A stretch of DNA of 64,000 bases, taken from Candidatus Omnitrophota bacterium (GTDB lineage Bacteria > Omnitrophota > Gorgyraeia > Zapsychrales > Zapsychraceae). The notes under the pieces were generated by a model, which worked only from the letters and a program-made list of their open reading frames with translations, ran no database searches and had not been told where the DNA came from. Of this stretch, positions 9,314-31,590 are shown in pieces. The translations under genes were made by a program, and so were the position numbers. The number at the start of each line of letters is the position of its first letter. Position 1 is the first letter of the stretch. Where the stretch lies: assembly GCA_021108075.1 (NCBI GenBank), contig JAIORP010000171.1, positions 68,041 through 132,040 of the forward strand, in the 5' to 3' direction.

Positions 9314-9314
9314 G

Positions 9315-11977: not shown

Positions 11978-12039
11978 AATAATCGATATTTATCCTTTGT
12001 ATTTCATAAATATAAATACTATGAAGTATTTACAAAAAT

Positions 12040-12055
12040 TACCAAATAATTGGTA
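12040..12055. repeat. 16-bp near-palindrome TACCAAATAATTGGTA resembling fused MITE termini (possible footprint or minimal derivative)
   Basis: The arms TACCAAAT / AATTGGTA equal the outermost 8 bp of the MITE left and right ends. It lies in the pilM upstream intergenic region. Confidence 0.3.
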
Positions 12056-12178
12056 TTATATCAAATCCAGGCTAAAAAATAAGTTTTTTCAAATTTATTT
12101 TTCATGATCTTTTGATGGGTTCAATATGTCTATCTCAACACCACCAAACCCCGGTTCCCACCTCCCTGTGTTTTTGAC

Positions 12179-12550
12179 CTATTGCATTAATATCTGACTG
12201 TCCAATGGCATCTCATGCACAACGCCTTCAACTAATTCTCTATCCGTATGCATACGCGTATCGGAACCATGCATATGTGATTGTAAAAGCTCCTCATCGT
12301 GTTCATCCTGCTTAACCAATTTTGTCTGAATTTGCACCTTTTCCGGTGTTTTAACCCGCGTGACCTGTGGTGTGAATTCTGATAACTGCTGTTTCTCAAT
12401 GGACTCAAACTCTTGATTGACCTTATTGTTGCCCCAAATGATCACGCCAATAATCAGAATAATAAACACCACAAGTCCTGGCAAAGCCCCTTTGGACTGT
12501 CCGGAACAGTCCCGCCCAATCAATGCTGTTGTTGGCCTTCGCCTATCCAT
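12179..12550 (-). CDS. hypothetical single-TM protein (4-nt overlap with the upstream PilX-like gene)
   Basis: ORF with one hydrophobic helix; translationally coupled (ATGA overlap) to the 572-aa pilus-associated protein. Confidence 0.3.
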   Translation of the reverse strand: MDRRRPTTALIGRDCSGQSKGALPGLVVFIILIIGVIIWGNNKVNQEFESIEKQQLSEFTPQVTRVKTPEKVQIQTKLVKQDEHDEELLQSHMHGSDTRMHTDRELVEGVVHEMPLDSQILMQ

Positions 12551-14268
12551 TAAACCCCTCCTTCTTGCCAGACCAGCTTATCCGTTAAATCGTTTGTAAA
12601 CCCAACAAACGTGTTTAATGTCGGGAAATATGGTGGGGATTTCCCCATTAATGTCCTCTCATCATACACAAAATTACGGCCATAACCCGATAGTTGCGAA
12701 CCGGTCGATCCATTAAAAAGTCCAAAAGCGCCATAGAACTGCGTAATGACACCACCCAATAATGTGGCTGTTCCTCTTGGGCCTACTCCCGTATCATTAT
12801 AATTGTCCACGGTAAAAATGCCATTCCGTCCTAATACAATACCATGAATTTCAACATCATTCGGTGCCGAACTTCCTATCCGAACATCCCCGCCCCAGGA
12901 AAGAAGACCTAAAAGATTTGTATTACCAACCGCGTCTGGACCAGAGTATCCGGGATTACCCGGACTCCCTGAAGCAGCCGAATAATTTTGATATTTCAAA
13001 TCACCACCGACAATAATATCCCACTCGCTGGAAACCGTAATTTCTGTATCTTGCTGAACGACTCCTGAAATCGAATCAACCTGACCGTCGACATAAATGA
13101 TCGTGCCAACATCATCCATTCCATCAGGAACTCCAGTGTAGACATTCACGACCGATCCGTCATCAACAGACGTCGTATTATTGACTTGATCGACAATAAT
13201 AAACATCGATCCTGTCGTTGGTTCACTGATGTTATAGGTCGCGTTGCCACTTCCGTCGACACCCAAAACGATGGTGGAATCACCGCGGATAAAAATTCCT
13301 CCTGTAAGATTTACGCCATCATTGGAAACAAAAATACCATTTCCAACAATATTCGTTCCTCCGGTTGCCTGATCCTGCAAATCACCTTTTTGAACAGATG
13401 ATGGCAATACAATTGTGGCCTCTCCGCGAAGGAAAGAAGAGTTAAAGATAGGAACATCTGCCGAACCGTTAAAGTGATGGTCGATTAAAACAGGTGAACC
13501 ATTATTATAGAACCTGGCTTTTGTCAAATGCTGGGATATGGCTCCATCAAAAATTCCACCCGGATTAAAAGCGAAGCTGAATCGTTCATTCGTATGGACA
13601 GGACCTTCAAAATTCGTTCTGTTCGTAAACCATACGGAGGAACCGCTGGGAAGTCCGTGGTGGTCGGTAAACAACGCAAATTTAGCGAAATTATCGCGTT
13701 GAACCCGAATGGTAAAATCACCCGAAATCAACACTTCCCGGTTTAAATTACCGCTCGTCCCACCACCTTCCACACGGTAATTATACGGAAAGTCCCACGT
13801 ATCTGTCGAGACCGTGATCGGATTGCCTTTGGCCATGACGATCACATCATAGTCAAAAGTTCCTGTTGCTAGAGTTACCGTGCTCGAGGTATGTGTCGCT
13901 GATAACCCATCCGAAGCTAAGGTAAAGATCGGTGTTCCTCCATCCTCAGCATATTCAATAAGAAAACCTAATGAATCATTGCTGGCAACATAATTGCTCG
14001 CTGAGTTTCCAACGACCTGCGGATTTTTTTGCCCGATCGTCGTCGATAAATCCGTATTGATAAAATCATCCAAATTGTACAACCCTGCGTGTGCGGCGGC
14101 TTCTCCAATGTAGAAGGCTTTGGTCAAATCTCTTTCCATGCGTGCCAGGTTGTTTTCATTAACAGAGCGAAGCAGGAACATAGAACTTATTGATAACAGG
14201 ACCAAAACAACAAATAGAGAAACTAAAAGAGCAGCACCTTTTTCGTTTTTTAAGATCACGATGATCAC
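12550..14268 (-). CDS. large PilX-N-domain protein (putative pilus tip/adhesin, PilY1-like role)
   Basis: N-terminus MIIVILKNEKGAALLVSLFVVLVLLSISSMFL matches the PilX N-terminal pseudopilin-like helix without the E+5 residue. It is followed by a ~520-aa G/S/T/N-rich beta-rich region and sits right after the minor pilin genes. Confidence 0.5.
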   Translation of the reverse strand: MIIVILKNEKGAALLVSLFVVLVLLSISSMFLLRSVNENNLARMERDLTKAFYIGEAAAHAGLYNLDDFINTDLSTTIGQKNPQVVGNSASNYVASNDSLGFLIEYAEDGGTPIFTLASDGLSATHTSSTVTLATGTFDYDVIVMAKGNPITVSTDTWDFPYNYRVEGGGTSGNLNREVLISGDFTIRVQRDNFAKFALFTDHHGLPSGSSVWFTNRTNFEGPVHTNERFSFAFNPGGIFDGAISQHLTKARFYNNGSPVLIDHHFNGSADVPIFNSSFLRGEATIVLPSSVQKGDLQDQATGGTNIVGNGIFVSNDGVNLTGGIFIRGDSTIVLGVDGSGNATYNISEPTTGSMFIIVDQVNNTTSVDDGSVVNVYTGVPDGMDDVGTIIYVDGQVDSISGVVQQDTEITVSSEWDIIVGGDLKYQNYSAASGSPGNPGYSGPDAVGNTNLLGLLSWGGDVRIGSSAPNDVEIHGIVLGRNGIFTVDNYNDTGVGPRGTATLLGGVITQFYGAFGLFNGSTGSQLSGYGRNFVYDERTLMGKSPPYFPTLNTFVGFTNDLTDKLVWQEGGV

Positions 14269-14271
14269 CCC

Positions 14272-14961
14272 CTATTTATTTCGTAAATATATGTTAATCG
14301 AGCTTGACCCTGTTACTGTGCGGCCATCATCAGCATTGGTTTGCGCTGTTGTTGTCACAGTGACCACATTCTGATCCGTGCTTAAGCTCGCTTGAAAATC
14401 CGTTACATTGTCAGCAAAAATATCTTCGCGCACGAGTCCATTTGAGCCGTCAAATACGCGGCGCACCAATTGATTGCTCCCGTTCATAGCGTATTCAAGC
14501 GATCCATAATCCCGCGTCAAACAATCGTTGTCAGCGTCCATACACGTCGAGGATGTGCAACCCCACGTCAATGGCGCGCCCCAGTTGGCTACATCGCCAT
14601 TGCTATCGATCACAGATCCGTTTGCCTCGCAGAGGATCGGCATCGAAAATCCCAGCAGATCCGACATGCCGGGACCGCCTGAATTCAAAATCGAAACTTG
14701 CATAACCCCGTTCAAATCATCCCCGCTTTGTCTCAATTCTTTGGAAAGCCTTTGATTCGTTTTCCTCAAACTGTCTCGCAAACGGATTTGGGCATCTGTT
14801 GTCAGCCAACTTGTTTGGCTGGTTGACATCATGGTATAAACTCCAGCTGACATAGCGACAAAAATACTCATTGCGACCATGATTTCAATCAGGGTAATCC
14901 CCCGGTTCGACCTTATTGTTTTGTTGGCCCGTATTTTCTTAACGACTTTATTTTTCCGCAT
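14272..14961 (-). CDS. minor pilin (PilW-like); start trimmed to the internal Met
   Basis: Prepilin leader ...RSNRG|ITLIEIMVAMSIF (Gly-1, Glu+5). The ORF-track start at 15051 overlaps the upstream pilin gene, so the start was moved to MRKNK... (about 14961). Confidence 0.55.
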   Translation of the reverse strand: MRKNKVVKKIRANKTIRSNRGITLIEIMVAMSIFVAMSAGVYTMMSTSQTSWLTTDAQIRLRDSLRKTNQRLSKELRQSGDDLNGVMQVSILNSGGPGMSDLLGFSMPILCEANGSVIDSNGDVANWGAPLTWGCTSSTCMDADNDCLTRDYGSLEYAMNGSNQLVRRVFDGSNGLVREDIFADNVTDFQASLSTDQNVVTVTTTAQTNADDGRTVTGSSSINIYLRNK

Positions 14962-14974
14962 GTCAAACTCCATA

Positions 14975-15433
14975 TCAAATATTGTACATATAACTAATAA
15001 TTTCAACCGTCGAATCCAGACGGCCATTACCATTCGTGTCTTCTCCGCCATCTAATTGACCATTCAGGTTTGTGTCTTCTCCTATAATACGTCCGTTCTT
15101 TTGCTGCCAACAGACGACAACCGTAATCTCGAGTAAATCAACAACTGTATTGTCAACATAGCTCACGCCCATACCCGTCACACCTGGCACAGTAAAAGTC
15201 GCGTTGTGATAAGTCCCTAGCACAGTTGTAAAAACCGCATTACGGATGTCCTCCATGCGCGATTTTGCCTCCAAGGTCGCTATTGAGGAATTGCGGGCTA
15301 AATCATTGAGCTCTAGACACTTCACAAAAGTTAAAAGCATGCCGACAAACATCAAAACAAATATCACGGCCGCCACCATGACCTCGACCAATGTGAACCC
15401 TTCCTGTTTTTTGATTTTCATTTTTCCCTTCAT
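14975..15433 (-). CDS. minor pilin (PilV-like)
   Basis: Leader MKGKMKIKKQEG|FTLVEVMVAAVIF, a class III signal peptide with a methylation/cleavage site. Confidence 0.55.
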   Translation of the reverse strand: MKGKMKIKKQEGFTLVEVMVAAVIFVLMFVGMLLTFVKCLELNDLARNSSIATLEAKSRMEDIRNAVFTTVLGTYHNATFTVPGVTGMGVSYVDNTVVDLLEITVVVCWQQKNGRIIGEDTNLNGQLDGGEDTNGNGRLDSTVEIISYMYNI

Positions 15434-15460
15434 CTTTCCTTCCTCAATATCACAGGTTCG

Positions 15461-15495
15461 CTACTATAAAAGGGGGGGACTATTATAGTCCCCCT
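15461..15495 (-). terminator. intrinsic terminator downstream of pilA
   Basis: Minus-strand RNA forms GGGGGACU-AUAAU-AGUCCCCC followed by CCUUUUAUAGU. A strong G/C stem sits immediately 3' of the pilA stop and before the minor-pilin genes. Confidence 0.55.
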
Positions 15496-15527
15496 CGCAT
15501 CTCAACAATCTGTAACATTAACAGACA

Positions 15528-15935
15528 TTAGGGCGCTGCTGCAGCCGTAAGAATACTGCCTGTGGTCATCGTAAATATACGGGTACCTGTTTGACCAGAT
15601 GTTAATGGAGTAGCGACTAAAGTATAACCACCTGCAGCCCAAGTACAAGTATAACCGTAACCGGCTGTACCTAATGTGCAATAGTCTGCGTTGATATACG
15701 GTGGTGTTGCGCCAGTAAGATTGGCTACGGCTGCCGGGTAGTTTCCATTATTAGCCGTGGCAAATGTTTCTGCTGATGTTGATAGTGTCCGCAATGTACT
15801 TTGAGCTAAAGCCTCATTTGAGGATACTTTAGCCCTGAGTAAATTAGGGATGGCGATCGCCGCTAATAGAGCGATAATCGCGACAACGATCATAATTTCA
15901 ACTAGAGTAAAACCTCTTTGATCTCTTCTTTTCAT
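15528..15935 (-). CDS. pilA: major type IVa pilin
   Basis: MKRRDQRG|FTLVEIMIVVAIIALLAAIAIPNL is a canonical T4a prepilin leader with Phe+1 and Glu+5. The C-terminal CTLGTAGYGYTC disulfide D-region fits, and an AGGAGG Shine-Dalgarno lies upstream. Confidence 0.85.
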   Translation of the reverse strand: MKRRDQRGFTLVEIMIVVAIIALLAAIAIPNLLRAKVSSNEALAQSTLRTLSTSAETFATANNGNYPAAVANLTGATPPYINADYCTLGTAGYGYTCTWAAGGYTLVATPLTSGQTGTRIFTMTTGSILTAAAAP

Positions 15936-18610: not shown

Positions 18611-19615
18611 TTAATTATAGGCCTCTTTGAAAAGCTTCTTCAGGTTAAACAAGTCTTTTTTTAATAAATTATTTTCATGTTTTAAAATTTTTAAATTCTC
18701 TTCAAATTGAAAAAACTCCGCGTTGCTGGCCGAAAGATCAATTTTATTAGTCTTAATTTTCTTTTTCGCCTTATTCAGAATGTCTTCTAATTCCATGCGA
18801 TTAACACCCAGAGATTTAATGTCCATGAAAAAATTCTCGATTGTTTCTTTCTTTGAGATCTCCAATTGATGAGTCGTATGCCTCAACTTTTTTTCTTCGG
18901 TAATAAAAATCTTCAGTTCATCTTCGGCGATAACCAATTGCTGCTTCAAAACAATTTGCTCTTCTCGATAATTCGATAATTGCGATAATGGTTTATAGTA
19001 TCGTTTTTTTAACGACTGTATTTCTCTGCGGATCAATTTCAGGTTAAACTCACTGTCCGTTCTAAGCTCTAACAAACGGTTTTTCTCGCTGACATAGTCC
19101 AGGTTGCGAGTTTTCTTGTCAATGATACTTTTTAATTGATGGATCTCATTCTCAAGATAAACCACTTCTTGTTTCATTTGGATGATATCATCTTGAAGCG
19201 TCATTTGAGCGTCTTCCTGGTCCTCGGTGTGCCGGGTCAGAATGTGCTGCTGTTGCCTCCGCGCCTCTTGCGCACGAAGATCTCTTTGATAGTCCTGGCG
19301 GCTAATATCGGATTGCTCTCGGGAGATCCGGTCCTCTTCATCGATGTCCTGTTGCGGGGATGGACTCTTTTGTTCCAGGCGCTCTAACTCTTGCTCAAGA
19401 AGATAAATCTGTTGACGGAAGGAATCATTTTCCCGCGCTAACCAACGGTTGTTCAGCTTAACTTGTTCGACCTGAGCCTTCAAACTCTTTAACCCGCACA
19501 GTAAGTTCTCGTCTTTATCAGGGTTAAGCCTCCGCGTTCCCGCAGCAGCGGAATGAAATCCCATCAGGATAAAAAGGATAGCGATGCAAGAAATGGTTTG
19601 TTTGTGATCATTCAT
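18611..19615 (-). CDS. secreted/periplasmic coiled-coil protein (hypothetical; last gene of the pilus ATPase operon)
   Basis: N-terminal signal/anchor (ISCIAILFILMGFHSAAAG) then ~300 aa of heptad-rich Q/E/K/L sequence. It lies 10 nt downstream of pilC. Confidence 0.3.
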   Translation of the reverse strand: MNDHKQTISCIAILFILMGFHSAAAGTRRLNPDKDENLLCGLKSLKAQVEQVKLNNRWLARENDSFRQQIYLLEQELERLEQKSPSPQQDIDEEDRISREQSDISRQDYQRDLRAQEARRQQQHILTRHTEDQEDAQMTLQDDIIQMKQEVVYLENEIHQLKSIIDKKTRNLDYVSEKNRLLELRTDSEFNLKLIRREIQSLKKRYYKPLSQLSNYREEQIVLKQQLVIAEDELKIFITEEKKLRHTTHQLEISKKETIENFFMDIKSLGVNRMELEDILNKAKKKIKTNKIDLSASNAEFFQFEENLKILKHENNLLKKDLFNLKKLFKEAYN

Positions 19616-19625: not shown

Positions 19626-20834
19626 TTAAGAGATAACCGTCATGATGCTTAAGATCGGCATAAAAAGTGCGATAACGATAAAACCGATGACAATACCTAA
19701 AACACCAATGATCAAAGGCTCAATGATACTCGTCAATCCTTCAACAGCAGCATCGACCTGGTCATCATAAAATTCAGCGATTTTTAACAACATTTTCTCT
19801 AATTGCCCGGACTTCTCCCCGATAGCAATCATGCGGGTCACCATGGGCGGGAACACCGTGCTTTTAATTAAAGGGGTTGCTAAACTTTCCCCTTCACGGA
19901 CGGAGTTTTTCACTTCATCAATAACTAATTCCAGGACACGATTTCCACTCGTCTTACCAACGATGTCTAAAGATTCCAGGATCGGAACCCCGCTTTGAAT
20001 TAAAGTGGATAATGTGCGGCTAAAACGGCTTATGGCCACCTTTCGAAACAGTTCTCCGAAGATCGGCATCCTGAGAATGAAATGATCTATCGCGAGCCTT
20101 CCTTTGTCTGTTTTGTATAGCCGTTTCATTAAAAAAACAAATGCGACAAGTGCCGCGATAACATACAACAAATAATGTTTCAAAACATTGCTGATGTTAA
20201 TTAAAAGTTGCGTCATCGCCGGAAGGTCTTTGTCGAAGGAATCATAAATACCAGCAAATGTTGGAACAACCTTAACCAACAAGACAACCGTGATGATAAG
20301 GGCCATGGAAACGACAACAGCTGGATAAATCATGGCGGATTTAACCTTGCGGACCAATTTTAATGTTTTTTCTAAATAACCGGAGATCCGATCCAACACA
20401 GCACTTAAGACCCCACCTGTTTCTCCGACTTTGACCATATTGACGAACAATGGATCAAAGACCGTTGGATGCTTAGAAAACGCCGCCGACAAACTGCTTC
20501 CATGTTGAATATCATCCCGCACCGTTGTTAAAACTTTTGAGAAATACGGATGTGATGTTTGGTCTTTCAGCGCATCCAGACCCTGCAAAATAGGAATCCC
20601 CGCTTCCACCATCGTCGCTAATTGCCGTGAGAAGATAACGATTTCATCGGCCTTAACTTTTTTTCTTTGAAAAAAAGATTTTCCTAAAGAAGATTCTTTG
20701 ACTTCTGTGACAGAAATAATTGTTAATTTTCTTTTTCTTAATGTGTCCAGGACAGCGGCCTTATTCTCGGCGGATATCTTACCCGTAACATTCCGGGCGC
20801 TTTCATCTTTGGCTACATATTTAAAGGTTCCCAT
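19626..20834 (-). CDS. pilC: type IV pilus platform protein PilC (GspF family)
   Basis: Two T2SS-F repeats and three TM segments; conserved GspF-domain sequence. Confidence 0.85.
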   Translation of the reverse strand: MGTFKYVAKDESARNVTGKISAENKAAVLDTLRKRKLTIISVTEVKESSLGKSFFQRKKVKADEIVIFSRQLATMVEAGIPILQGLDALKDQTSHPYFSKVLTTVRDDIQHGSSLSAAFSKHPTVFDPLFVNMVKVGETGGVLSAVLDRISGYLEKTLKLVRKVKSAMIYPAVVVSMALIITVVLLVKVVPTFAGIYDSFDKDLPAMTQLLINISNVLKHYLLYVIAALVAFVFLMKRLYKTDKGRLAIDHFILRMPIFGELFRKVAISRFSRTLSTLIQSGVPILESLDIVGKTSGNRVLELVIDEVKNSVREGESLATPLIKSTVFPPMVTRMIAIGEKSGQLEKMLLKIAEFYDDQVDAAVEGLTSIIEPLIIGVLGIVIGFIVIALFMPILSIMTVIS

Positions 20835-20893: not shown

Positions 20894-21346
20894 TCAGGCA
20901 TAACTACGTTCAATAGCACGTGTGATTTCACTCTTGGTGGAAATAAAAGCGGCAATCTGGCATTGGGTACAATCTTTAAATTCATTTTTTATAGAGCCAT
21001 CCATCGGATTGGCCATAACAATACTGATAATGTTTCCTTCCCTGGCAAAAGGCAACGCGCAGTATTCTAAGGCTTTATCTTTTGACACAAGACCAACAAT
21101 ACTCGGATCAATGGCCAATTTATCAACCGCGATATAGGGAAATTTTTTCTGTTCAATCAAAGCACAGACGACATCTTTCTCAGCGACATAACCCAGTCCT
21201 GTTAAAACTTCTCCAATAAATTGCTTGGATTCCTTTTGGATCAAAAGAGCATGCCGTAACTGTCGCTTGGCCAAGATGTTGCGGCCAACCAGAATTTCAC
21301 CTAACCGTTTATTTCTAGAGTTGCCAAATTGTACTGATTGCATCAT
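20894..21346 (-). CDS. stand-alone MshEN/GspE-N-terminal domain protein (putative c-di-GMP receptor)
   Basis: 150 aa. N-terminal RLGEILVGRNILAKRQLRHALLIQ fits the 24-residue MshEN c-di-GMP motif RLGxx(L/V/I)(L/V/I)xxG(L/V/I)(L/V/I)xxxxLxxxLxxQ with one mismatch. It has T2SSE_N-like secondary composition and no ATPase domain. Confidence 0.6.
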   Translation of the reverse strand: MMQSVQFGNSRNKRLGEILVGRNILAKRQLRHALLIQKESKQFIGEVLTGLGYVAEKDVVCALIEQKKFPYIAVDKLAIDPSIVGLVSKDKALEYCALPFAREGNIISIVMANPMDGSIKNEFKDCTQCQIAAFISTKSEITRAIERSYA

Positions 21347-21547
21347 GATAACCTTCTATGTTGGATATATTCTAACCCAGAAGAGCTCTTTCGCAAAGGA
21401 TGAACTGATATTTGTTTTTTACTTCCTATTGTTACAAACATATTTTAAAAATCCTCCTGAGCAACACTAATACTACTTTCAATTAAAGCATTTTTTTGCT
21501 TATTATGCAAAAAAACTTCTATCTGTCTAACGGAAAAACAAACGATA

Positions 21548-23296
21548 TTAGTCTTTTGAGGTTACCCTGAGAACCTCTTCCAGGGAGGTAACACCAGCAT
21601 AGGCCTTGTCCCAAACATCATCCCACAATGTATCCATCCCATTTGTTTTGCGGGCATACATCTTAATCGCGTCCGAGGATTCTCCTTTCAGCAACATCTC
21701 ACGAATGGGATCATCGACCACAAGCACCTCGGTGATTGATGTCCGCCCCAGGTAGCCCGTTTGCCGGCACATTTCACAACCTTTACCATAATAAAAGACA
21801 GCCCCCGGGCGGGGTGTCATCTTCAGTTCTTCAAACAAATCTCCAGGCGACTCCAGTGGTTCCTTGCAATTCGGACAAATCTTTCGGCACAACCGCTGGG
21901 CAGTGACTAAAATAATACTCGAAGCGACCAGAAAAGGCTCGACCCCCATATCAACCAAACGCGTCAAAGCACCGGAGGCGTCATTGGTGTGCAATGTGGA
22001 TAAAACAAGCTGCCCTGTCAAGGAAGCCTTGATCGAGATATCAGCTGTTTCGTTATCCCGAATTTCACCGACCATCACGATGTCGGGACTCTGACGTAAA
22101 ATAGCCCTTAAGCCTTCGGAAAAAGTGTAACCGATTTCCGCTTTCGTCTGGATTTGAGTCAGGCCGTCGACTAAATATTCGACCGGATCTTCAACCGTTA
22201 CAACGTTCTTGTCCGGGGTGTTCAGATCATTCAAAATGGAATACAACGTGGTTGACTTCCCGCTGCCTGTCGGACCGGTGACAAGGATCATGCCGAACGG
22301 CTTGTGGATACATTCATTGATCCATTTATAAGACTTCTCAGATATTCCCAGGCCCTCCAGACCAACCGACAGATTACCCTTATCAAGAATGCGCAGGACA
22401 ACTTTCTGGCCAAATGTGGTCGGCAGCAGCGAGACCCGAAAGTCAACTTCACGGTTAGCAATCTGCAACTTAAAGCGTCCGTCCTGTGGAACTTGATTCG
22501 CCGTAATATCTAAACGTGACATAATTTTAATACGGACCGTCACGGCATTTTGATTTTCTTTAGGGATTGTTAATATATCCAGCAAAGACCCGTCGATGCG
22601 ATAGCGCACGCGCATACAATCTACCATGGGTTCAATATGGATATCCGACGTCCGCTGCCGCAAAGCTTCTTTGATAATCAAATTCACCATTCGAATAATA
22701 GGGGCTTTTTCCCCTTCATCCGCTTTCGTGTCATCTCCGGTGACTTCGTCTTTCTCTGAAACAATTTCGAAATCTCCAAGCTGAATGTCTTTCGTGAGCT
22801 CGTTCACACTAGCCCTGTTTTCGGTACCATAAAAAACATCTAATGCTTTTATAATATCACTGGTCGGGCTCATAACCAGATCGACATCCCTTCCGGTAAT
22901 ATTTTTCAAATCATCGACCAAGAAAATGTTTAACGGATCGGATGTTGCAATTGTAATGGTATATTGAAGGGCCGATAACGGAATAATTTGATACTGCCGG
23001 GCGACTCTCGCAGATATAACCTCCTGCAAGGACGGATCAATTTTATATTTATTGAGGTTGATGAACGGAATGTTCAACTCCTGGACCAAAAAAGATAAGA
23101 CGTCCTCTTCTTTAATAGCTCCGCTTTCAATCAAGGCTTTATCCAGACCGATGTTCTTCCTCTTCTGTATGATCCTTGCCTTATCAACATCTTCTTTCTT
23201 GATCTGCATAGCATTGATCAGTTTATCGACGACATTATCTCTTAAATATTGTGATGACATAAAATTATCTACATTTCGGTTTAAGGTTGAAATCAT
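21548..23296 (-). CDS. pilB: type IV pilus assembly ATPase PilB/GspE family (paralog 1)
   Basis: N-terminal GspE-N domain, Walker A GPTGSGKSTT, Asp box and His box, and a tetracysteine motif (CRKICPNC...CEMC). Confidence 0.85.
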   Translation of the reverse strand: MISTLNRNVDNFMSSQYLRDNVVDKLINAMQIKKEDVDKARIIQKRKNIGLDKALIESGAIKEEDVLSFLVQELNIPFINLNKYKIDPSLQEVISARVARQYQIIPLSALQYTITIATSDPLNIFLVDDLKNITGRDVDLVMSPTSDIIKALDVFYGTENRASVNELTKDIQLGDFEIVSEKDEVTGDDTKADEGEKAPIIRMVNLIIKEALRQRTSDIHIEPMVDCMRVRYRIDGSLLDILTIPKENQNAVTVRIKIMSRLDITANQVPQDGRFKLQIANREVDFRVSLLPTTFGQKVVLRILDKGNLSVGLEGLGISEKSYKWINECIHKPFGMILVTGPTGSGKSTTLYSILNDLNTPDKNVVTVEDPVEYLVDGLTQIQTKAEIGYTFSEGLRAILRQSPDIVMVGEIRDNETADISIKASLTGQLVLSTLHTNDASGALTRLVDMGVEPFLVASSIILVTAQRLCRKICPNCKEPLESPGDLFEELKMTPRPGAVFYYGKGCEMCRQTGYLGRTSITEVLVVDDPIREMLLKGESSDAIKMYARKTNGMDTLWDDVWDKAYAGVTSLEEVLRVTSKD

Positions 23297-23343
23297 TTAT
23301 AATCATATCTCAATCTTATTGACTAAAAATAAAAGTCCGGTCA

Positions 23344-25092
23344 TTACTGTTCCGAGCCATCTGGAGCAGTGATCCGCAAAACCTCTTCTAAGGTCGTTAA
23401 TCCCTGATAGGCCTTGATCAAACCATCTGCCCGCATGGTTGTCATGCCTTCCTTCTGGGCCTGAGCCTTAATCAGCATTTCACTTTCTCTGGCGAGTATC
23501 ATTTCTTTCACTTTTGTGGTTAACAACAGAATCTCCGTGATACCGACCCGGCCTTTATACCCTGTGTTGAAGCAGGCCTTGCATCCCTTTCCGCGGCTCA
23601 GCTCAATATCGCCGTGCGGATATATACTCCGCAGACCAACCCGCCTGGCAACTGCCTCTTGCAGGATATACGTCTCTTTACATTTCGCACAAATCCTCCT
23701 CAATAATCTTTGGGCAATGATCACTAAGACGGAGGAACAAATCAGAAACGGCTCAATCCCCATATTCTCCATTCGAACGATCGATCCCGCCGCTGTCGTC
23801 GTATGCAAAGAACTTAAAACAAGGTGACCGGTTAAGGCCGCTTTTACGGCAATGTCTAATGTGGTGGCATCCCGAATCTCTCCGATCATGATAATATCCG
23901 GATCCTGCCTTAAAATGGACCGCAGGGCCCCGGGGAAAGTCAAGCCCAAAGCTGGTTTTATGTTGACCTGGTTGATACCTTTCATTTGATACTCGACCGG
24001 GTCTTCAACCGTAACAATATTTTTTTCAGGTGAATCAACAAAATTCAATATGGAATAAAGCGTTGTGGTCTTCCCGCTGCCCGTCGGCCCGCATGTCAGG
24101 ATAAGACCATGAGGTTTGATCGAAGCATCCTTTAACCTTCTTAATGAATCCGGTTCGAAACCCAACTTCTCAACATCCAAAACAGCTCCGCTCTGGTCTA
24201 ATATACGCAGACAAACTTTCTCCCCAATGATCGTCGGCAACACATTAACACGAAAATCGACGGAGCGGCCACCCGACAATATCGTCTTAAACCGACCATC
24301 TTGCGGCAGGCGGTGTTCCGAGATATCCAAACTCGAGATAACTTTTATGCGAGAGACAATGGGCGGCAATAAAACCTTGGTCATGCGGTCAATCTCTCTA
24401 ATAATCCCGTCGATCCGGTAACGTACCCTCATAACTGTTTCTAGTGGCTCAATAAAAACGTCACTCGCCTTGGCCATTACGGCCTGTTGGATGATCGTGT
24501 CCGTCAATTTTATGATGGGTGCTTCCTCGGTAATTTCTTCAATCCCGCCCTGGTGCGAGGTGTGCTGCAAATCTTTGACAAGCTCCAAATCACCCGTGTC
24601 CTGAATATCTTTCATAATCGCGTTAAACGCTTCATGCGTGTCCTGAGGCGCTTCTTCCTCCTCAGCATAATACTTCTTAATCGTTTCAACGATATCTTTG
24701 GACTTACTGATAATCGGATTAATCGTATACCCCGTCAAGGCCTTAACATTATCAATCACAAAAATATTTAATGGATCGGCCATGGCCAGGGTTAAGTTTT
24801 CACCAATTAAAGAAATGGGAATAATTTGATATTTCACGGCAATATCTTTTGGAATGGCGGCAATGACGTCGGCATCAATCTTTAATCGGCTGATACTGAT
24901 TGGAGGGAATCCTAAGCCTTCGCTAAGCACTTGAGTCAGAACATCTTCATCAATTAAATTCATCTTGATTAAAATTTTACTTAACTCTCCACCATTATTT
25001 TCTTGTTCGGCTAAAGCTCGCTGAAGGTCTTCGTGTGATATGAAATTATCACGAATCAATATTTCTTGTAATATATTTTTTAATGAGGCCAT
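23344..25092 (-). CDS. type IV pilus assembly ATPase PilB/GspE family (paralog 2)
   Basis: N-terminal GspE-N domain, Walker A GPTGSGKTTT, and tetracysteine CAKCK...CKAC. Same 582-aa length as paralog 1. Confidence 0.85.
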   Translation of the reverse strand: MASLKNILQEILIRDNFISHEDLQRALAEQENNGGELSKILIKMNLIDEDVLTQVLSEGLGFPPISISRLKIDADVIAAIPKDIAVKYQIIPISLIGENLTLAMADPLNIFVIDNVKALTGYTINPIISKSKDIVETIKKYYAEEEEAPQDTHEAFNAIMKDIQDTGDLELVKDLQHTSHQGGIEEITEEAPIIKLTDTIIQQAVMAKASDVFIEPLETVMRVRYRIDGIIREIDRMTKVLLPPIVSRIKVISSLDISEHRLPQDGRFKTILSGGRSVDFRVNVLPTIIGEKVCLRILDQSGAVLDVEKLGFEPDSLRRLKDASIKPHGLILTCGPTGSGKTTTLYSILNFVDSPEKNIVTVEDPVEYQMKGINQVNIKPALGLTFPGALRSILRQDPDIIMIGEIRDATTLDIAVKAALTGHLVLSSLHTTTAAGSIVRMENMGIEPFLICSSVLVIIAQRLLRRICAKCKETYILQEAVARRVGLRSIYPHGDIELSRGKGCKACFNTGYKGRVGITEILLLTTKVKEMILARESEMLIKAQAQKEGMTTMRADGLIKAYQGLTTLEEVLRITAPDGSEQ

Positions 25093-25095
25093 GCT

Positions 25096-25542
25096 TTACG
25101 ATTGATAGTATTTCTCAATACATTGTTTGATATCGCTCGTTGTTGCGACAAAAACCTGGACCATACATTCCGTTAGCGCCTCAACGTCTTGCGCGGCCTG
25201 AAAATTCAGAGGATTTGCCATGGCAATAGTTAAACTCCTGCCTATTTTATCAATAGGAATGAGACAATATTTTAAACAAACTTCTTTGGGAACCGTTGAT
25301 GTGAGTTCCGCATCAATTTCATAACTCGCCAAGGGCAAATAAGGGAATCCGTATTGACAGGTTAATGCCTGCGCGATATCCTTCTCCGTTGCATATTTCA
25401 ATTCGACCAGAATCTCACCGATTAATCCCCCGTGTTTCTTTTGATACTCGATGGCATTATCTATCTGTTCTCTCGAAATGACGCCCCGCTCCAAAAGGAG
25501 TTCACCTAAAGGTTTAGTGGTTGTTTTCTTGAAATACTTCAT
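25096..25542 (-). CDS. stand-alone MshEN/GspE-N-terminal domain protein (putative c-di-GMP receptor)
   Basis: 148 aa. PLGELLLERGVISREQIDNAIEYQ matches the MshEN motif at the G10, hydrophobic and terminal Q positions. It is the first gene of the pilus ATPase operon. Confidence 0.6.
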   Translation of the reverse strand: MKYFKKTTTKPLGELLLERGVISREQIDNAIEYQKKHGGLIGEILVELKYATEKDIAQALTCQYGFPYLPLASYEIDAELTSTVPKEVCLKYCLIPIDKIGRSLTIAMANPLNFQAAQDVEALTECMVQVFVATTSDIKQCIEKYYQS

Positions 25543-25770
25543 ACGATCCTAATAAATTAAATATTTTAATAATAATATATATAATAGTTAATTAATTGTA
25601 CTATAGTTAAACTTTTGAAACAATTAAAAAGATTGCTTATATTTTGTCACAAAATGTAATTTTTCAATATATTTTTTATTTATTTTTATAAACCTCTATC
25701 CTTAGTCTAATCAAACACGAGTGGAAACCCCACGGGTAAACCTATGGTATGCTGCCCTTCGGGCTTAATA

Positions 25771-25806: not shown

Positions 25807-26913
25807 CTAAAGAACTGTCCTCTTCTTGCTGAGATTGATTAAAAAACCCATCATAATAATAAAGACCAAAAAAGAGGAGCGCCCATAACTCACCAACGGC
25901 AGAGTTAAACCGACAACAGGAAAAAGCCCGATGACCATCCCAATATTGATCACCACTTGCAATGTTAGAATAGAAACAATACCAACTGTTACCAGGACCC
26001 CGAACTTGTCCTTTATTTTTAAGGCGATTTTCAGGCCATTATGGATCAGCAAAAAATACAAGCAAACTAAAAAACATGTTCCGATCAAGCCCCATTCCTC
26101 CCCGATTACGGAAAAAATAAAGTCGGTATGCCTCTCAGGCAAAAAATTCAATTGATTCTGTGTGCCGGCCAACCATCCTTTGCCAAGCAGGCGGCCTGAC
26201 CCGATGGCAATCTTTGACTGAATAATCGTGTAACCAGCGCCAAGGGGGTCGATATTGGGATTCAAAAAAACCAACAAACGATCTTTTTGGTACGGTTTCA
26301 AGAATCTCCAGCCGATAGGGATAAAACTGACACATAGGATGATAAAACCAATAAAATACCGGTAGGCTGTTCCATGAGCAAAACATATGACCAAAAAAAT
26401 ACCAAACAATAGCAATGCCGTGCCAAGATCAGGCTGCTTAAAGATGAGAAACATCAATATTGTCGTTAGCATAAAGGGCAATAAAATATCCCTGAATATA
26501 ATTTGGGTGCGATTGATAAAACCAAAGGTTAAATTCGATTGTCGATTTGCATAATACCGCCCTAACAGTAAAATGACAGACAATTTTGTCAGCTCAGAGG
26601 GTTGGAAGCTAAGGGGTCCCACCTGAAGCCATCGCCTGGCGCCAAGCGCATGGCGGCCCCCGATCAAAACAATCAACAATAATAAAATATTTATGCCATA
26701 AAAAATATATGCGATATCATAAAAACGGCGATAATCAATGCGGCCGATGACATACATCAAAACAAGGCCCAGGATTGCCATGGCCAACTGATCCCAAAAG
26801 ACCTTCTGGGGAACGCGAACATTCTGGCAGGACGCGCTATACAACGCGAGCAGTCCCATAGCCATAATAAGACTCGTAAAAATCCAAATCCGTTTTGTCC
26901 GGTTTTTTTCCAT
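25807..26913 (-). CDS. rodA: SEDS-family peptidoglycan polymerase RodA
   Basis: 10-TM FtsW/RodA fold and its position after mrdA in the mreBCD-mrdA-rodA cluster. Confidence 0.85.
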   Translation of the reverse strand: MEKNRTKRIWIFTSLIMAMGLLALYSASCQNVRVPQKVFWDQLAMAILGLVLMYVIGRIDYRRFYDIAYIFYGINILLLLIVLIGGRHALGARRWLQVGPLSFQPSELTKLSVILLLGRYYANRQSNLTFGFINRTQIIFRDILLPFMLTTILMFLIFKQPDLGTALLLFGIFLVICFAHGTAYRYFIGFIILCVSFIPIGWRFLKPYQKDRLLVFLNPNIDPLGAGYTIIQSKIAIGSGRLLGKGWLAGTQNQLNFLPERHTDFIFSVIGEEWGLIGTCFLVCLYFLLIHNGLKIALKIKDKFGVLVTVGIVSILTLQVVINIGMVIGLFPVVGLTLPLVSYGRSSFLVFIIMMGFLINLSKKRTVL

Positions 26914-26919
26914 AATTTA

Positions 26920-26999
26920 TACCAAATCCATTAATAAATTGCTCTATCTTAATTCTGAAAAGCAGAATTAATTTTTGTCATTATTTGATGGAATTGGTA
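26920..26999 (+). mobile_element. MITE-like element, subtype A (80 bp), in the mrdA-rodA spacer
   Basis: TACCAAATCCATTAATAAAT...ATTATTTGATGGAATTGGTA flanked by TTA/TTA direct repeats. It ends 7 bp upstream of the rodA start codon. Confidence 0.8.
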
Positions 27000-27010
27000 T
27001 TATATAAACA

Positions 27011-28693
27011 TTATAACAATTTCATCGTTTTCATTCTGATCAACATCTCACGTGCAATCAAGTTCGCATTATGACTGGAACCCCCATGTTCCAAGAAGAC
27101 ACAAAAAACAATATCCCGTCCCCGCCCACTTGTATAACCGACAAACCAGGCGTGGTCTTCTTTATTCCCGGAAGTCTGCGCCGTTCCCGTCTTCCCGCTC
27201 ACGCGAATGTCAGATAAATGCAGTTCATGAGCTGTTCCGGAAAACTCTTTGACGGTCGCGCGCATCCCTTGTTTCACAGCATCAAATATTTCACTGGAAA
27301 TTTTCAGTTCACGAGAAAAATTAAAATCTTCAACATCATGATCCATAACGGACTTTAATACGTGCGGTTGCAAAATACGGCCTTCATTAGCCACGGTGGC
27401 CATCACATGAAGCAACTGCAAAGGGGTTGTCAGCAAGTCCCCCTGCCCGATCGAATAGTTCAGCGTGTCACCAGCATACCATCGTTTCCGACGGGAAAGA
27501 ATGCCCCGGTTGCGGTATGGGACATAACCGCTCTTTTCATACGGCAAGTCAATATGGGTCACCTGTCCTAATCCAAACAAGTGTGCGTATTGCCCAATAA
27601 TATCCGCGCCTAAAATAAGGCCGATGCGATAAAAATAAACATTACAGGAATGCCCAATGGCTTCAAACATATTCTGCGGCCCATGAACATGTGTGCATCG
27701 GAAATGACGATTACCGACTTCATGATATCCATTACAGATAAAAGTTGTATGCTTTGTTATTTTTTCCTTATCTAAAGCGGCAATCGCGACCAGTATTTTA
27801 AAGACAGAGCCCGGAGGATATAATCCCTGTATAACACGGTTGAGAAACGGTGACCGCGGATCTTTTGTCGTCCTTGTGTTGGGATCATAAGCCGGCGAAC
27901 TAACCATCCCTAAAATTTCCCCATTGGCCTTATCCATGATGACAATGGCTCCAGGGCGGCTATCCAGCAAAGATGTTAAAAGCTGCTGCAATTTGACATC
28001 AATCGTTAATGAGATATCCTGTCCTTTTTGAGGCGCTTTATAACTCAACAGGCGCACTTGTTGCCCGCGACTATTCACTTCCACCTGAATCCCGCCTTCT
28101 GATCCCTTCAGGAAGGAATTGTAATACTCTTCCGCCCCCAGCTTACCGACGACATGAAGGGGGGAATAACCGTATTCCTGAAACCGTTCCCTATCGGAAA
28201 GGTTGACTTTCCCGACAAAACCTAAAACATGAGCGCTGTCCTTGCCATAGGGATAAAGCCGTTTGAAGCCTTTCTGAATCATCATGCTTGGAAAACGATA
28301 TTTGTTCTCTTCAATAATGATCGCCTTTGCCCGGGGTATATTTTCAGCAACCGCGACCGGGGCGAAGGGCGCCGATTTGCGTTGACGATAACGTTTAATC
28401 AACTTCTCTTTATTCTTACCCAGCACATCACTGATGTATTGAAAGACCTGGTCGAAATCCGCGATATCTTGCGGAGTGACAACAACATCATAAGAAATTG
28501 TATTATCGGCCAGAACCATCCCGTTGCGGTCCTTAATACGTCCGCGCCAGCCTTCCAAGGGAACCACCCGTATACGATTATTCGTGCTCAATCGATAATA
28601 CAGATTCCCCTTGAAGATCTGCACATAAAACAAATCACCGAGAATAACGATAAACAGGATAATTATGACAACACGAATAATTTGGAGACGCAT
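27011..28693 (-). CDS. mrdA: penicillin-binding protein 2 (elongasome transpeptidase)
   Basis: PBP dimerisation domain plus transpeptidase motifs (SxxK: SVFK; SxN; KTG: KTGTA). Confidence 0.85.
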   Translation of the reverse strand: MRLQIIRVVIIILFIVILGDLFYVQIFKGNLYYRLSTNNRIRVVPLEGWRGRIKDRNGMVLADNTISYDVVVTPQDIADFDQVFQYISDVLGKNKEKLIKRYRQRKSAPFAPVAVAENIPRAKAIIIEENKYRFPSMMIQKGFKRLYPYGKDSAHVLGFVGKVNLSDRERFQEYGYSPLHVVGKLGAEEYYNSFLKGSEGGIQVEVNSRGQQVRLLSYKAPQKGQDISLTIDVKLQQLLTSLLDSRPGAIVIMDKANGEILGMVSSPAYDPNTRTTKDPRSPFLNRVIQGLYPPGSVFKILVAIAALDKEKITKHTTFICNGYHEVGNRHFRCTHVHGPQNMFEAIGHSCNVYFYRIGLILGADIIGQYAHLFGLGQVTHIDLPYEKSGYVPYRNRGILSRRKRWYAGDTLNYSIGQGDLLTTPLQLLHVMATVANEGRILQPHVLKSVMDHDVEDFNFSRELKISSEIFDAVKQGMRATVKEFSGTAHELHLSDIRVSGKTGTAQTSGNKEDHAWFVGYTSGRGRDIVFCVFLEHGGSSHNANLIAREMLIRMKTMKLL

Positions 28694-29154
28694 TTTTCTA
28701 ATTGTTTAAAGATAAATGGGGCTAAGAATAATGTTAGTAATAATTCGGGTACTAATATAAATCTGAATGCATCGACAAAACTGATGGCATCATTGGCTAA
28801 ATATATAAAATATTGGACAAAAAAATTCAGAATCACACAAATAAACACGACCAAAAGGCGTGAAGATGGGGATCCTCGACGATAAACATGCTTTATGATC
28901 AGAGTTAGAGCGTAGGAACAGATCAAAAATGAATAAAGATTAAATCCAAACATATCCGCGCTGAAAGAATCCTTAATAAGCCCCGCGACAATTGCCGCGA
29001 AAAGAGAGGTGTTCCTTCCCATGGCAAGGTGAACGAATATAATGATAAGCATTAAAATATTTGGCATCCATCGTTCATCAAAGCAGTTGAAAATAATGAA
29101 CTCCAAGACGTATCCAATAATAATAAAAATAAAAACAAAAAAGAATTTTTTCAT
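28663..29154 (-). CDS. mreD: rod shape-determining protein MreD
   Basis: Small polytopic membrane protein between mreC and mrdA. Confidence 0.6.
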   Translation of the reverse strand: MKKFFFVFIFIIIGYVLEFIIFNCFDERWMPNILMLIIIFVHLAMGRNTSLFAAIVAGLIKDSFSADMFGFNLYSFLICSYALTLIIKHVYRRGSPSSRLLVVFICVILNFFVQYFIYLANDAISFVDAFRFILVPELLLTLFLAPFIFKQLEKCVSKLFVLS

Positions 29155-29155
29155 A

Positions 29156-29941
29156 TTATTTAATCAAAACCAAAACTTCTTCGACTTGAGACAATTGGAC
29201 GGCTGGATGAACAAGACAGATAATGGAGCCGGACTGCTGATCATCTTCAATGTGAATAACTTCACCAATGACCAGGCTTTCCGGGAATGACGAACTTAAT
29301 TTTGAGGTGATAACGATATCTCCAATATTGATCCGAGCATCTTCATCGACATACGTCATGCGACAAACACCCTGCAATGTTCCGGAGACCAAACCACTTT
29401 CTCTCGGCCGCTGCACCAGCGCAGCAACACTAAACCTGGGATCTGTAATCAAAATAACTTTACTGGTCTTATCACTAACCTCGGCTATTTTTCCAACAAT
29501 GCCCTGGGAGCTAACAACTGCCATACCCTGCTTTATGCCATCCACGCCGCCTTTGTCGATCACAAAAGTGGCATTCCAGTTAGAGGGATCACGGCCAACG
29601 ACATTTGCCCCGACAGAAGAATAAATTAATTCCCGTTTAAATTCTAATAAGCGTTCCAAACGGGCATTTTCAACAATGACTTCTTCGAATCCCACTAACC
29701 GGGCCCGCAAGACCTCAACTTCTTTCCTTAATTTTTTATATTCTTTGAAAGTCCGATGATAATAAACCATCTTCTTGACTTCATAAACGGGGGAAGAAAA
29801 AAAAATGACGGGCCCGGACAACAAATCAATAATTTTAAATTTTAAGGACGCGAAAGGATATAAGCGGCTAAAAACAATCGTAATCATAACCAACAGCAAA
29901 ATAAAATAGACAATATTCTTTTGATTATCTTTTAGTAACAT
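29156..29941 (-). CDS. mreC: rod shape-determining protein MreC
   Basis: N-terminal TM helix, coiled-coil, and tandem beta-barrel domains, between mreB and mreD. Confidence 0.8.
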   Translation of the reverse strand: MLLKDNQKNIVYFILLLVMITIVFSRLYPFASLKFKIIDLLSGPVIFFSSPVYEVKKMVYYHRTFKEYKKLRKEVEVLRARLVGFEEVIVENARLERLLEFKRELIYSSVGANVVGRDPSNWNATFVIDKGGVDGIKQGMAVVSSQGIVGKIAEVSDKTSKVILITDPRFSVAALVQRPRESGLVSGTLQGVCRMTYVDEDARINIGDIVITSKLSSSFPESLVIGEVIHIEDDQQSGSIICLVHPAVQLSQVEEVLVLIK

Positions 29942-30112
29942 GATTCGTTGTTTGAATGGTTTGATATGATGATTCGCAACAAATGGTTAAAAGAAAAAAA
30001 GTGTGACTGTGACTAATTATTTATTTCAATTTACCTTTTGCGATGCAAAAATTAAATGCACAAAATAAAAAATTAGTTCCATCACACATCTTTTCGTATT
30101 CTGAAACCAATA

Positions 30113-31186
30113 TTAAAAATCTAATTTTGTTGGAACAATAATCCTTCTTCTCAACCGTAGTGGCATATGCAACATCTGACCGGTGCCTAAAACAACTGCC
30201 GTTAAAGGATCATCTGCGATATGGACGGGCAAACCGGTTTCTTCGGCAATACGCTTATCTAAACCTCTTAACAACGAACCACCTCCCGCCATAACAATGC
30301 CCCTGTCAATCAAATCAGCTGACAACTCTGGAGGAGTCTGTTCTAATGTTGATTTTGACGCATCAACAATAGCCTGAACGGGATCTTGCAATGCTTCCCG
30401 AACTTCTATGGATGTGATTGTAATGGTCTTCGGTAAACCAGCAATCAAATCACGACCGCGCACATCCATATTCAATTCTTCTTCTAACGGATAGGCTGAC
30501 CCGATTCGAATCTTAATTTCTTCAGCGGTTCTTTCGCCAATCATCAAATTATATGTTTTGCGCAGGTATTCAACAATCGCGGCATCCATCTCATCACCGG
30601 CAATGCGGATGGATTTGGCGTAGACCAGGCCCCCCAGGGAAATAACAGCGAATTCCGTCGTCCCACCCCCGACATCAATGATCATGTTACCCGCGGCTTC
30701 TTCAACCGGCAAACCGACACCGACAGCCGCAGCTTTAGGCTCTTCGATCAGTTCAACTGACCGGGCCCCTGCCCGTTCCGCTGAATCCCGAACCGCTCTC
30801 TTCTCAACAGCCGTGATCCCGGAAGGAATGGCAATAACCATGGCAGGACTTAATAAGGTCTTTCGACGATGGACTTTTTTGATAAAATACTTCAACATCG
30901 CTTCCGTAATCTCAAAATCAGAAATAACCCCGTCTTTCATTGGTCGAATAGCAACGATATTTCCAGGTGTACGGCCCAACATTTTCTTTGCTTCCTCACC
31001 AACAGCTACGACCCGGTTTGTATCTTTCTCAATAGCGACAACCGAAGGCTCACACAGAACAACGCCCTCCCCTTTAACAAAGACCAAAGTCGTTGCCGTA
31101 CCTAAATCAATGCCAATATCATTAGAAAAAAGACCGAGGATGTAATTAAACATTTTCCTGAAAAGTCTGAAGAGTTTTTGTAACAT
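30113..31186 (-). CDS. mreB: actin homologue MreB (start trimmed to MLQKLFR...)
   Basis: ...[22 protein letters not shown]..., actin phosphate-1/2 and adenosine motifs. The ORF-track start at 31216 adds 10 non-conserved residues. Confidence 0.9.
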
Positions 31187-31590
31187 GAATATTTCCTTTA
31201 GGATATGGGTAGGCAAACTTTTTATATAATATCACAACTGTGTGAATTAAAGCTGTATCTCGTATTTCATGAAACATATCTCGTCGAAATATTTTCGCTT
31301 CACCAGACACAAACGACGCTTCACACATTCAGGTCCCACACACTTATTACGATGATCAGGTGTCAACAACTTAGACGTGAATGACATAATATGAATCTTT
31401 AAATAGAAATTGATTTTAAGTTTTATAATACTATATGAAAAAAAATACACTGTCAATCAGTTTTTCATCACTCATTACGCCATTTTTTTCTTTGAGCGCA
31501 TACTTCTTGCCATCAAATTATTTAGAAAGGAATGTGGTTGGCCGTTCACACGATATGGATGGAATTCAACAAACAATCACATGAAATGGA

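Follow-up and report, generated by a model that had tools for sequence, protein, structure and literature searches.

Free-standing MshEN proteins encoded beside PilB-type ATPases with degenerate MshEN domains: a candidate split c-di-GMP receptor for the type IV pilus motor of Omnitrophota

Here we describe a type IV pilus motor operon in a 64,000-nucleotide stretch of DNA from a Candidatus Omnitrophota metagenome-assembled genome (contig JAIORP010000171.1, positions 68,041 to 132,040; hereafter the window), in which two small, free-standing MshEN proteins, S1 and S2, are encoded next to two PilB-type assembly ATPases, PilB-A and PilB-B, that carry MshEN-fold domains of their own. The free proteins keep the residues through which MshEN domains contact cyclic dimeric guanosine monophosphate (c-di-GMP) and the domains fused to the ATPases are degenerate, a phylum-wide partition of the kind that a division of labour between receptor and docking domain would predict. 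The reading we favour, at a probability of about 0.55, is that both small proteins bind c-di-GMP, with S1 as the detachable sensor of PilB-A, S2 as a second input and the fused domains in a docking or structural role. An earlier reading of the same DNA, made from the letters alone (the sequence-only reading), had drawn attention to this locus; its order and coordinates of open reading frames (ORFs) were recovered as claimed, as were the peptides it quoted. The four genes on which the argument rests are as follows.

25096..25542, minus strand: S1, a free-standing MshEN protein of 148 amino acids (aa), with PF05157 and NF053729 matches, an AlphaFold2 (AF2) model and more than 2,400 homologs
23344..25092, minus strand: PilB-A, an assembly ATPase of PilB type (582 aa) whose N-terminal domain has the MshEN fold (T2SSE, MshEN and TIGR02538 matches)
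21548..23296, minus strand: PilB-B, the second 582-aa PilB-type ATPase paralog (T2SSE, MshEN and TIGR02538 matches)
20894..21346, minus strand: S2, a free-standing MshEN protein of 150 aa whose gene lies between those of PilB-B and PilC (PF05157, NF053729, AF2)

Both small proteins are annotated as hypothetical proteins (S1, K8S27_13255; S2, K8S27_13240), yet they are complete, full-length MshEN proteins and not fragments. Each passes the curated cutoffs of the Pfam MshEN family PF05157 (23.1 bits) and of the NCBIfam c-di-GMP motif model NF053729 (38 bits), with scores of 76.9 and 66.5 bits for S1 and 55.1 and 46.0 bits for S2. Their AF2 models (predicted local distance difference test scores of 91.0 and 91.7) consist of a four-helix bundle (MshEN_N) followed by an alpha/beta subdomain (MshEN_C/T2SSE_N1), and the top Foldseek match of both is 5HTL, MshE with c-di-GMP bound, at template modelling (TM) scores of 0.80/0.84 for S1 and 0.77/0.83 for S2. 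The GSPII domains of PilF and the N-domain of Xanthomonas PilB come next among the structural matches, and PilF, PilB and MshE are the sequence matches in the PDB. The profile searches and the folds together bear out the proposal of the sequence-only reading that the small proteins are MshEN domains. Within the window, the closest paralog of S2 is S1, at 34% identity.

PilB-A and PilB-B are PilB/GspE-type ATPases, as judged from their T2SSE domains (444 and 429 bits), their setting among PilC, PilM, PilN, PilO and PilQ and their catalytic motifs, with Walker A, Walker B/Glu and Cys4 intact in both; they are not equivalog-level PilB, scoring 629.2 and 594.9 bits with TIGR02538, below its cutoff of 675.65 bits. 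They share 48.6% identity over the ATPase part, and the tandem pair of paralogs is conserved across Omnitrophota. Their fused domains score 68.9 (PilB-A) and 74.0 bits (PilB-B) with PF05157, and 46.3 and 19.0 bits with NF053729. One related contig (L089:14-1042) encodes a 342-aa PilT-like ATPase without an MshEN domain immediately upstream of its small MshEN gene.

The case for ligand binding lies in the contact residues. Each 24-residue motif of an MshEN domain contacts one guanine through Leu2, the backbone of Gly3, a cluster of Leu17 and Leu21, and Gln24, and published mutagenesis has found Gly3 essential and Arg1 dispensable; in MshE, G11L and G40I abolish binding and changes at Arg9 shift it by no more than about fivefold (PMC5013675). 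The verified non-binder XpsE carries G11V and G40L. We defined the contact core as hydrophobic residues at positions 2, 17 and 21 together with Gly3 and Gln24, required in both motifs, and located the motif regions of the four proteins as follows.

25354..25512, minus strand: 53-residue tandem c-di-GMP motif of S1, PLGELLLERGVISREQIDNAIEYQ-KKHGG-LIGEILVELKYATEKDIAQALTCQ
24916..25074, minus strand: degenerate motif region of PilB-A, ILQEILIRDNFISHEDLQRALAEQ-ENNGG-ELSKILIKMNLIDEDVLTQVLSEG
23078..23236, minus strand: degenerate motif region of PilB-B, NVVDKLINAMQIKKEDVDKARIIQ-KRKNI-GLDKALIESGAIKEEDVLSFLVQE
21149..21307, minus strand: tandem motif of S2, RLGEILVGRNILAKRQLRHALLIQ-KESKQ-FIGEVLTGLGYVAEKDVVCALIEQ

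In S1 (PLG…Q and LIG…Q) and S2 (RLG…Q and FIG…Q) Gly3 and Gln24 are kept in both motifs, and the full contact core is present in the 24+5+24 tandem layout. The fused N-domains both lack the Gly3 of a c-di-GMP-binding MshEN, and lack it in both motifs: position 3 is Gln (motif I) and Ser (motif II) in PilB-A, and Val and Asp in PilB-B, with Gly and Glu, respectively, at position 24 of motif II. Our comparative scan took one genome per GTDB species, with locus counts drawn from the ~80 best S1-bearing species, and found the core intact in both motifs of 67/81 S1 and 32/32 S2 proteins versus 0/69 PilB-A and 0/66 PilB-B domains, so the best receptor motifs do sit on separate polypeptides, as the sequence-only reading had it. 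Among the S1 orthologs, Gly3 is present in 80/81 (motif I) and 81/81 (motif II) and Gln24 in 73/81 and 81/81; all 32 S2 proteins have both residues in both motifs, a more distant Omnitrophota clade has Gly3 in both motifs of 114/114 proteins, and two high-GC split loci (L087 and L088) show the identical residue partition. Because it recurs across ~80 species, this pattern lies far beyond chance. The fused domains retain the hydrophobic scaffold positions of the motif without its contacts and thus serve as an internal control, indicating that Gly3 and Gln24 are dispensable for the fold; their retention in S1 and S2 therefore argues for ligand binding, and on the strength of these residues both proteins most likely bind c-di-GMP.

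S1 and PilB-A are separate genes. At their junction (25090..25098, minus strand) the sequence reads TAA-AGC-ATG, in frame, with a spacer of 3 nucleotides (nt), and a stop codon stands between the two genes here and in 71 related loci, which sets them apart from single polypeptides of the (MshEN)2-4-T2SSE type. Across 71 species-level loci most spacers measure between -1 and 8 nt, with all three reading frames represented (42/15/14); this points to translational coupling and not to readthrough. In these loci S1 is always ~150 aa long. The idea that S1 and S2 are artefacts, either decayed pilB fragments or pieces of one (MshEN)2-PilB gene with a sequencing error or a TAA that is read through, is hardly credible. 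It could draw on the shared frame of S1 and PilB-A in the window, where TAA-AGC is all that separates them, and on the existence of one fused homolog (P0142), a 765-aa ORF of an orthologous operon that runs from an intact S1-like domain through a linker and a degenerate domain to a PilB-A-like ATPase and lies upstream of PilB-B and PilC orthologs. Set against these are the >2,400 homologs of S1 that are ~150 aa long, the split in 71 independent species with spacers in three frames, a constraint on S1 equal to that on the ATPase core, the lack of any ATPase remnant after S2, and the split state of the nearest relatives of the fused ORF. We rejected a broken or read-through (MshEN)2-PilB gene on the three-frame spacers, the constant length of S1 and its constraint, and the earlier assertion that the small proteins are not frameshifted PilB fragments holds up, as both their size and the split are recurrent.

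Relatives of S1 were found in 492 species-representative genomes, of which the best 80 are essentially all from Omnitrophota; the named matches in three protein searches are from Omnitrophota only, and the high-GC loci L087 and L088 carry no taxonomy. The conserved order is mreC-mreD-PBP2-rodA-(radical SAM)-(GGDEF-domain protein)-S1-PilB-A-PilB-B-(S2, REC-HD-GYP or nothing)-PilC-…-pilin. By script, PilB-A is the next gene after S1 in 69/71 loci, the remaining two being artefacts of ORF starts, and wherever a locus is long enough to show it, PilB-A and then PilB-B come after S1 in effectively every case. A genome survey thus confirms that a stand-alone MshEN gene next to pilB is a conserved arrangement. 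The description of two small proteins bracketing two ATPases is correct for the window and otherwise lineage-specific, as S1 is universal whereas, of 63 loci, 29 (~46%) have a small MshEN gene between PilB-B and PilC, 2 have a REC-HD-GYP gene there and 32 have nothing. S2 is also much less conserved than S1 (median 44% identity). Over 45 species the mean pairwise distance of S1 (0.296) matches that of the two ATPase cores (0.295/0.301), with the fused N-domains at 0.40/0.43; S1 is as constrained as the catalytic ATPase core.

We infer ligand binding by the small proteins, the partnership of S1 with PilB-A and the direction of regulation, and propose the following mechanism. The MshEN domains fused to PilB-A and PilB-B would probably be docking or structural N1 domains only. 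S1 would be made together with PilB-A through translational coupling, the pair forming a functionally split (MshEN)2-ATPase of which S1 is the detachable sensing subunit, and occupancy of S1 by c-di-GMP would alter either engagement of the PilM/PilC platform or motor cycling, and in this way set pilus extension. S1 may act by docking on the degenerate N-domain, or it may compete with that domain for PilM or PilC by way of its T2SSE_N1 subdomain. As S2 is closest to S1 and less conserved, it is most simply read as an S1-derived paralog, present in about half of the related species, that probably provides a lineage-specific second c-di-GMP input near PilB-B or PilC. A more far-reaching version, in which S1 is an obligate and stoichiometric yet detachable c-di-GMP-sensing subunit that arose in Omnitrophota when a two-MshEN PilB was split, and the binding and release of S1 and S2 select which PilB paralog works at PilC/PilM, strikes us as doubtful; if true, it would amount to second-messenger-controlled motor swapping for the pili of ultra-small, host-attached or predatory bacteria contacting other cells.

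Several observations weigh against the detachable-sensor reading. Arg1 is absent from both motifs of S1, position 10 of its motif II is Lys instead of Gly, and 14/81 S1 orthologs lack one core position in motif I. PilB-A passes the NF053729 cutoff at 46.3 bits, so that the profile alone would class it as a binder, and in most species its motif I keeps Arg1 and Gln24; for these reasons PilB-A may bind in a non-canonical mode. A mirror-tree comparison gave S1 no preference for PilB-A, with a partial r of 0.33 for PilB-A versus 0.38 for PilB-B. No GGDEF, EAL, HD-GYP or PilZ Pfam match was found among the ~45 proteins of the window, and the GGDEF-domain protein that precedes S1 in some related loci has a degenerate signature and thus cannot be counted as a local source of c-di-GMP. 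Finally, the P0142 fusion is a singleton in the metagenome scan with nearest relatives (47-61% identity) that are split, and it therefore supports a split receptor only weakly. Two descriptions in the sequence-only reading need qualifying in this light. The motifs of the small proteins are near-canonical as regards Gly3 and Gln24 in both motifs, and depart from the canon in the positions of S1 just named and in the Asn at position 10 of motif I in S2; the fused domains are degenerate in having lost Gly3 in both motifs of both ATPases, whereas by profile score PilB-B is the only degenerate one.

The departures at position 1 have precedents. S1 orthologs carry Gln, His, Pro or Leu at this position of motif I (Pro in the window), after a nearly invariant Lys, and Leu in 80/81 at motif II; in most S2 proteins the residue is Leu, Phe or Tyr. 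GSPII-B of Thermus PilF has Lys/Leu at position 1 and binds c-di-GMP with an affinity of 6 nM; the consensus has been widened to (R/K/L)LG, and a hydrophobic residue at position 1 has been proposed as a predictor of very high affinity (PMC11731258). The first motif of E. coli NfrB is PLG (Wang et al. alignment). Position 1 of S1 and S2 agrees, fully or nearly, with this widened (R/K/L) consensus, and by analogy with these proteins the missing Arg in S1 is not a problem for the predicted binding of c-di-GMP. The same residues bear on a different possibility, that the two small proteins work independently of any nucleotide, as structural subunits or assembly chaperones of the pilus motor, with their conserved Gly and Gln serving protein-protein contacts. 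The non-binding GSPII-A domain of PilF is an instance of the MshEN fold persisting without ligand, and the loss of both Arg1 residues from S1 and the want of c-di-GMP enzymes in the window would fit; we nevertheless hold this possibility to be quite improbable, given that what S1 and S2 conserve coincides exactly with the published ligand contacts, which the fused paralogs have lost while keeping the fold, that the replacements at position 1 match the highest-affinity binder known, and that an HD-GYP phosphodiesterase lies inside the operon in some lineages. Sensing of another nucleotide through the MshEN pocket, for example 3'3'-cyclic GMP-AMP (cGAMP), is very unlikely: all characterised MshEN domains prefer c-di-GMP and the contact core is canonical, although variants at positions 1 and 10 could retune specificity, and weak binding of cGAMP by VcMshEN is recorded in a published figure legend.

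The remaining alternative turns on the surroundings of the four genes, of which the principal features are listed here.

25807..31216, minus strand: mreB-mreC-mreD-PBP2-rodA, upstream neighbours separated from S1 by a 264-nt gap (context only)
19626..20834, minus strand: PilC platform protein (T2SSF 224.5 bits; PilC and GspF NCBIfam models ~400-417 bits)
18611..19615, minus strand: membrane-anchored coiled-coil protein (no Pfam family; weak SMC-like coiled-coil matches only)
7949..15935, minus strand: remainder of the type IVa pilus genes, comprising three pilin-like genes, a DUF4900 protein, PilM, PilN, PilO and PilQ (Pfam)
10916-11977, minus strand: PilM (Pfam)
7949-9313, minus strand: secretin PilQ (Pfam)

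It is possible, if unlikely, that S1 and S2 bind c-di-GMP and act on something other than PilB, whether by docking onto PilM or PilC through their MshEN_C (T2SSE_N1) subdomain in competition with the ATPases, by buffering c-di-GMP with high affinity or by serving another process such as the neighbouring elongasome. In type II secretion, T2SSE_N1 is the module that binds GspL (PDB 2BH1 and 4PHT are partial structural matches), and PilM is encoded in the window; mreBCD-PBP2-rodA lies directly before S1 in 47/81 loci, and elongasome-gene synteny upstream of S1 is kept in most of the 80 related loci. S1-like MshEN domains are moreover fused to unrelated outputs (DnaA-like AAA+ and PilZ-like domains), which shows that the module is not tied to PilB, and the mirror-tree result points the same way. 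The coupling of S1, however, is specifically to PilB-A, and the two genes stay adjacent without exception, also in loci with other upstream neighbours (L086 and L089). Between rodA and S1 lie 264 nt that contain a terminator-like hairpin, which is weak evidence in the same direction, and we continue to favour PilB-A as the partner of S1.

From S1 to the coiled-coil gene the intergenic spacers are 3, 47, 201, 59 and 10 nt. The hairpin after rodA lies at 25716-25734 (minus strand); two promoter-like sites occur in the same gap before S1 (25563-25610, minus strand) and one, scoring 10/12, in the 201-nt gap before S2 (21502-21529). All of these are consensus matches only, and the promoter and terminator scans, with 27 sites versus 18.5 ± 3.6 expected, give hints at the consensus level; S1 and S2 may have promoters of their own, for which the evidence is weak. 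The coiled-coil protein is poorly conserved (24-29% identity, in a few loci) and its membership of the pilus-motor module is uncertain. A DEAD/DSHCT (Ski2/Mtr4-like) helicase gene on the plus strand (16659-18596) splits the pilus cluster, with the coiled-coil gene on one side and the pilin genes on the other. Two ORFs elsewhere in the window, at 32886-33848 (minus strand, 320 aa) and 52291-52854 (minus strand, 187 aa), have no Pfam family at E<=1e-5.

As regards c-di-GMP signalling, the only two signalling proteins seen in the window besides the MshEN genes are a stand-alone receiver (51184-51645, plus strand) and a dCache-HAMP histidine kinase (60170-62086, minus strand). PilZ genes and GGDEF domains have been reported in Omnitrophota. 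In 28/81 loci a HAMP-GAF-GGDEF gene lies directly upstream of S1 (for example L015, L030-L034, L040 and L001:6477-7940). Aligned to PleD, its signature reads GDHEF, or EDGVF in Velamenicoccus, versus GGEEF, and there is no RxxD I-site; we therefore rejected this protein as a local diguanylate cyclase, and regard it as a conserved, probably non-catalytic protein that partners the pilus motor operon in signalling. The REC-HD-GYP proteins found in the S2 slot, in Velamenicoccus (L001/L078:12340-13407) and in L072:11931-13007, have intact HD, HHE and GYP motifs.

Fusions of S1-like MshEN domains occur in other settings. The 454-aa protein P0162, from a Joint Genome Institute (JGI) metagenome contig, joins a motif-intact MshEN domain (NF053729, 59 bits) to domain III, the AAA+ domain, of DnaA; the DnaA part matches TIGR00362 with 351 bits over model positions 99-346 of 437 and lacks the DNA-binding domain IV. 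Such an architecture hints that c-di-GMP may feed into the initiation of replication or into an Hda-like regulator. In P0167 (723 aa) and P0186 (623 aa) an S1-like MshEN domain is fused to a PilZ-like TIGR02266 domain, and P0186 has in addition a transmembrane segment and a long coiled coil; by their domain content these would be proteins with two different c-di-GMP receptor modules each. A relationship between the coiled-coil protein of the operon and P0186, with its coiled-coil-MshEN-PilZ layout, was considered and dropped, as the two show no similarity (E >= 1).

On a practical level, users should be aware that the NF053729 cutoff alone puts some degenerate MshEN domains, PilB-A's for example, in the wrong class. 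More generally, a 2024 review described the contribution of the MshEN/N1 domain to PilB as "poorly understood". Here the putative ligand-binding copies and the ATPase-attached copies sit on separate polypeptides, with complementary signatures and hundreds of orthologs, which would allow a clean dissection of the coupling between c-di-GMP and PilB. In the uncultured phylum Omnitrophota, pili are believed to serve for attachment to hosts or prey, and the arrangement gives a first tangible entry point to the control of these type IV pili by second messengers.

The closest structural relative of S1 and S2 is MshE of Vibrio cholerae (5HTL), which has the same two-subdomain fold (TM ~0.8), the same 24+5+24 motif with Gly3, hydrophobic triads and Gln24, and a tie to the extension ATPase of a type IV pilus. 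In MshE, however, the receptor is covalently fused to its own ATPase and the first Arg of the motif is present, whereas in the operon described here the intact receptor is separate, the fused copy is degenerate and the Arg is mostly absent. PilF of Thermus thermophilus, a (MshEN/GSPII)3-ATPase, resembles it in bringing several MshEN domains to one motor, with GSPII-A non-binding and GSPII-B and GSPII-C binding, and its GSPII-B has Lys/Leu in place of Arg at position 1, as do S1 and S2. Single-chain (MshEN)2-4-T2SSE fusions exist in nature, and S1 plus PilB-A has the domain content of the two-MshEN version. PilF differs in being one chain whose ATPase-proximal GSPII-C domain binds; here it is the proximal domain that is degenerate and the putative binder that has been split off.

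Control of PilB by a separate c-di-GMP sensor is known from the FimX-PilZ-PilB system of Xanthomonas and Pseudomonas (PDB 7LKM-7LKO), where the signal is passed through a non-binding PilB N-domain of MshEN fold. There a degenerate EAL domain acts as the receptor and is linked to PilB by a PilZ adaptor that does not itself bind the ligand, whereas the candidate receptor in our locus is a paralog of the PilB N-domain itself, and no PilZ or EAL domain was found among the window proteins scanned. The sequence-only reading had counted P. aeruginosa PilB among ATPases with a fused c-di-GMP receptor; this was mistaken, as PA4526 PilB is among the tested non-binders (Wang et al. supplement). MshEN motifs without a T2SSE ATPase have likewise been described, in PA3740 of P. 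aeruginosa and cce_1044 of Cyanothece (Wang et al. 2016), the former being among the experimentally supported c-di-GMP binders and linked to swarming (Wang et al. 2016 supplement). Unlike S1 and S2, PA3740 has a highly diverged C-subdomain and cce_1044 consists of MshEN_N repeats only, and the sources consulted do not describe either as adjoining a pilB with a degenerate domain of its own. Single-domain and multi-repeat MshEN proteins proved abundant in sequence space in our exhaustive search. In the literature searched, which took in the principal genomics paper on Omnitrophota and the 2024 review on cofactors of PilB, there is no account of a free MshEN paralog genetically coupled to PilBs with degenerate MshEN domains. 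The suggestion that this arrangement is uncharacterised thus stands for the arrangement as such and must be tempered by the precedents of ATPase-less MshEN proteins, PilF and FimX-PilZ-PilB. The domain, its occurrence without an ATPase, ATPases with multiple MshEN domains and control of PilB by c-di-GMP in trans are all known already; what appears new, going by the literature searched, is the genetic coupling of a free MshEN protein, with its contacts intact, to a PilB whose own MshEN domain is degenerate.

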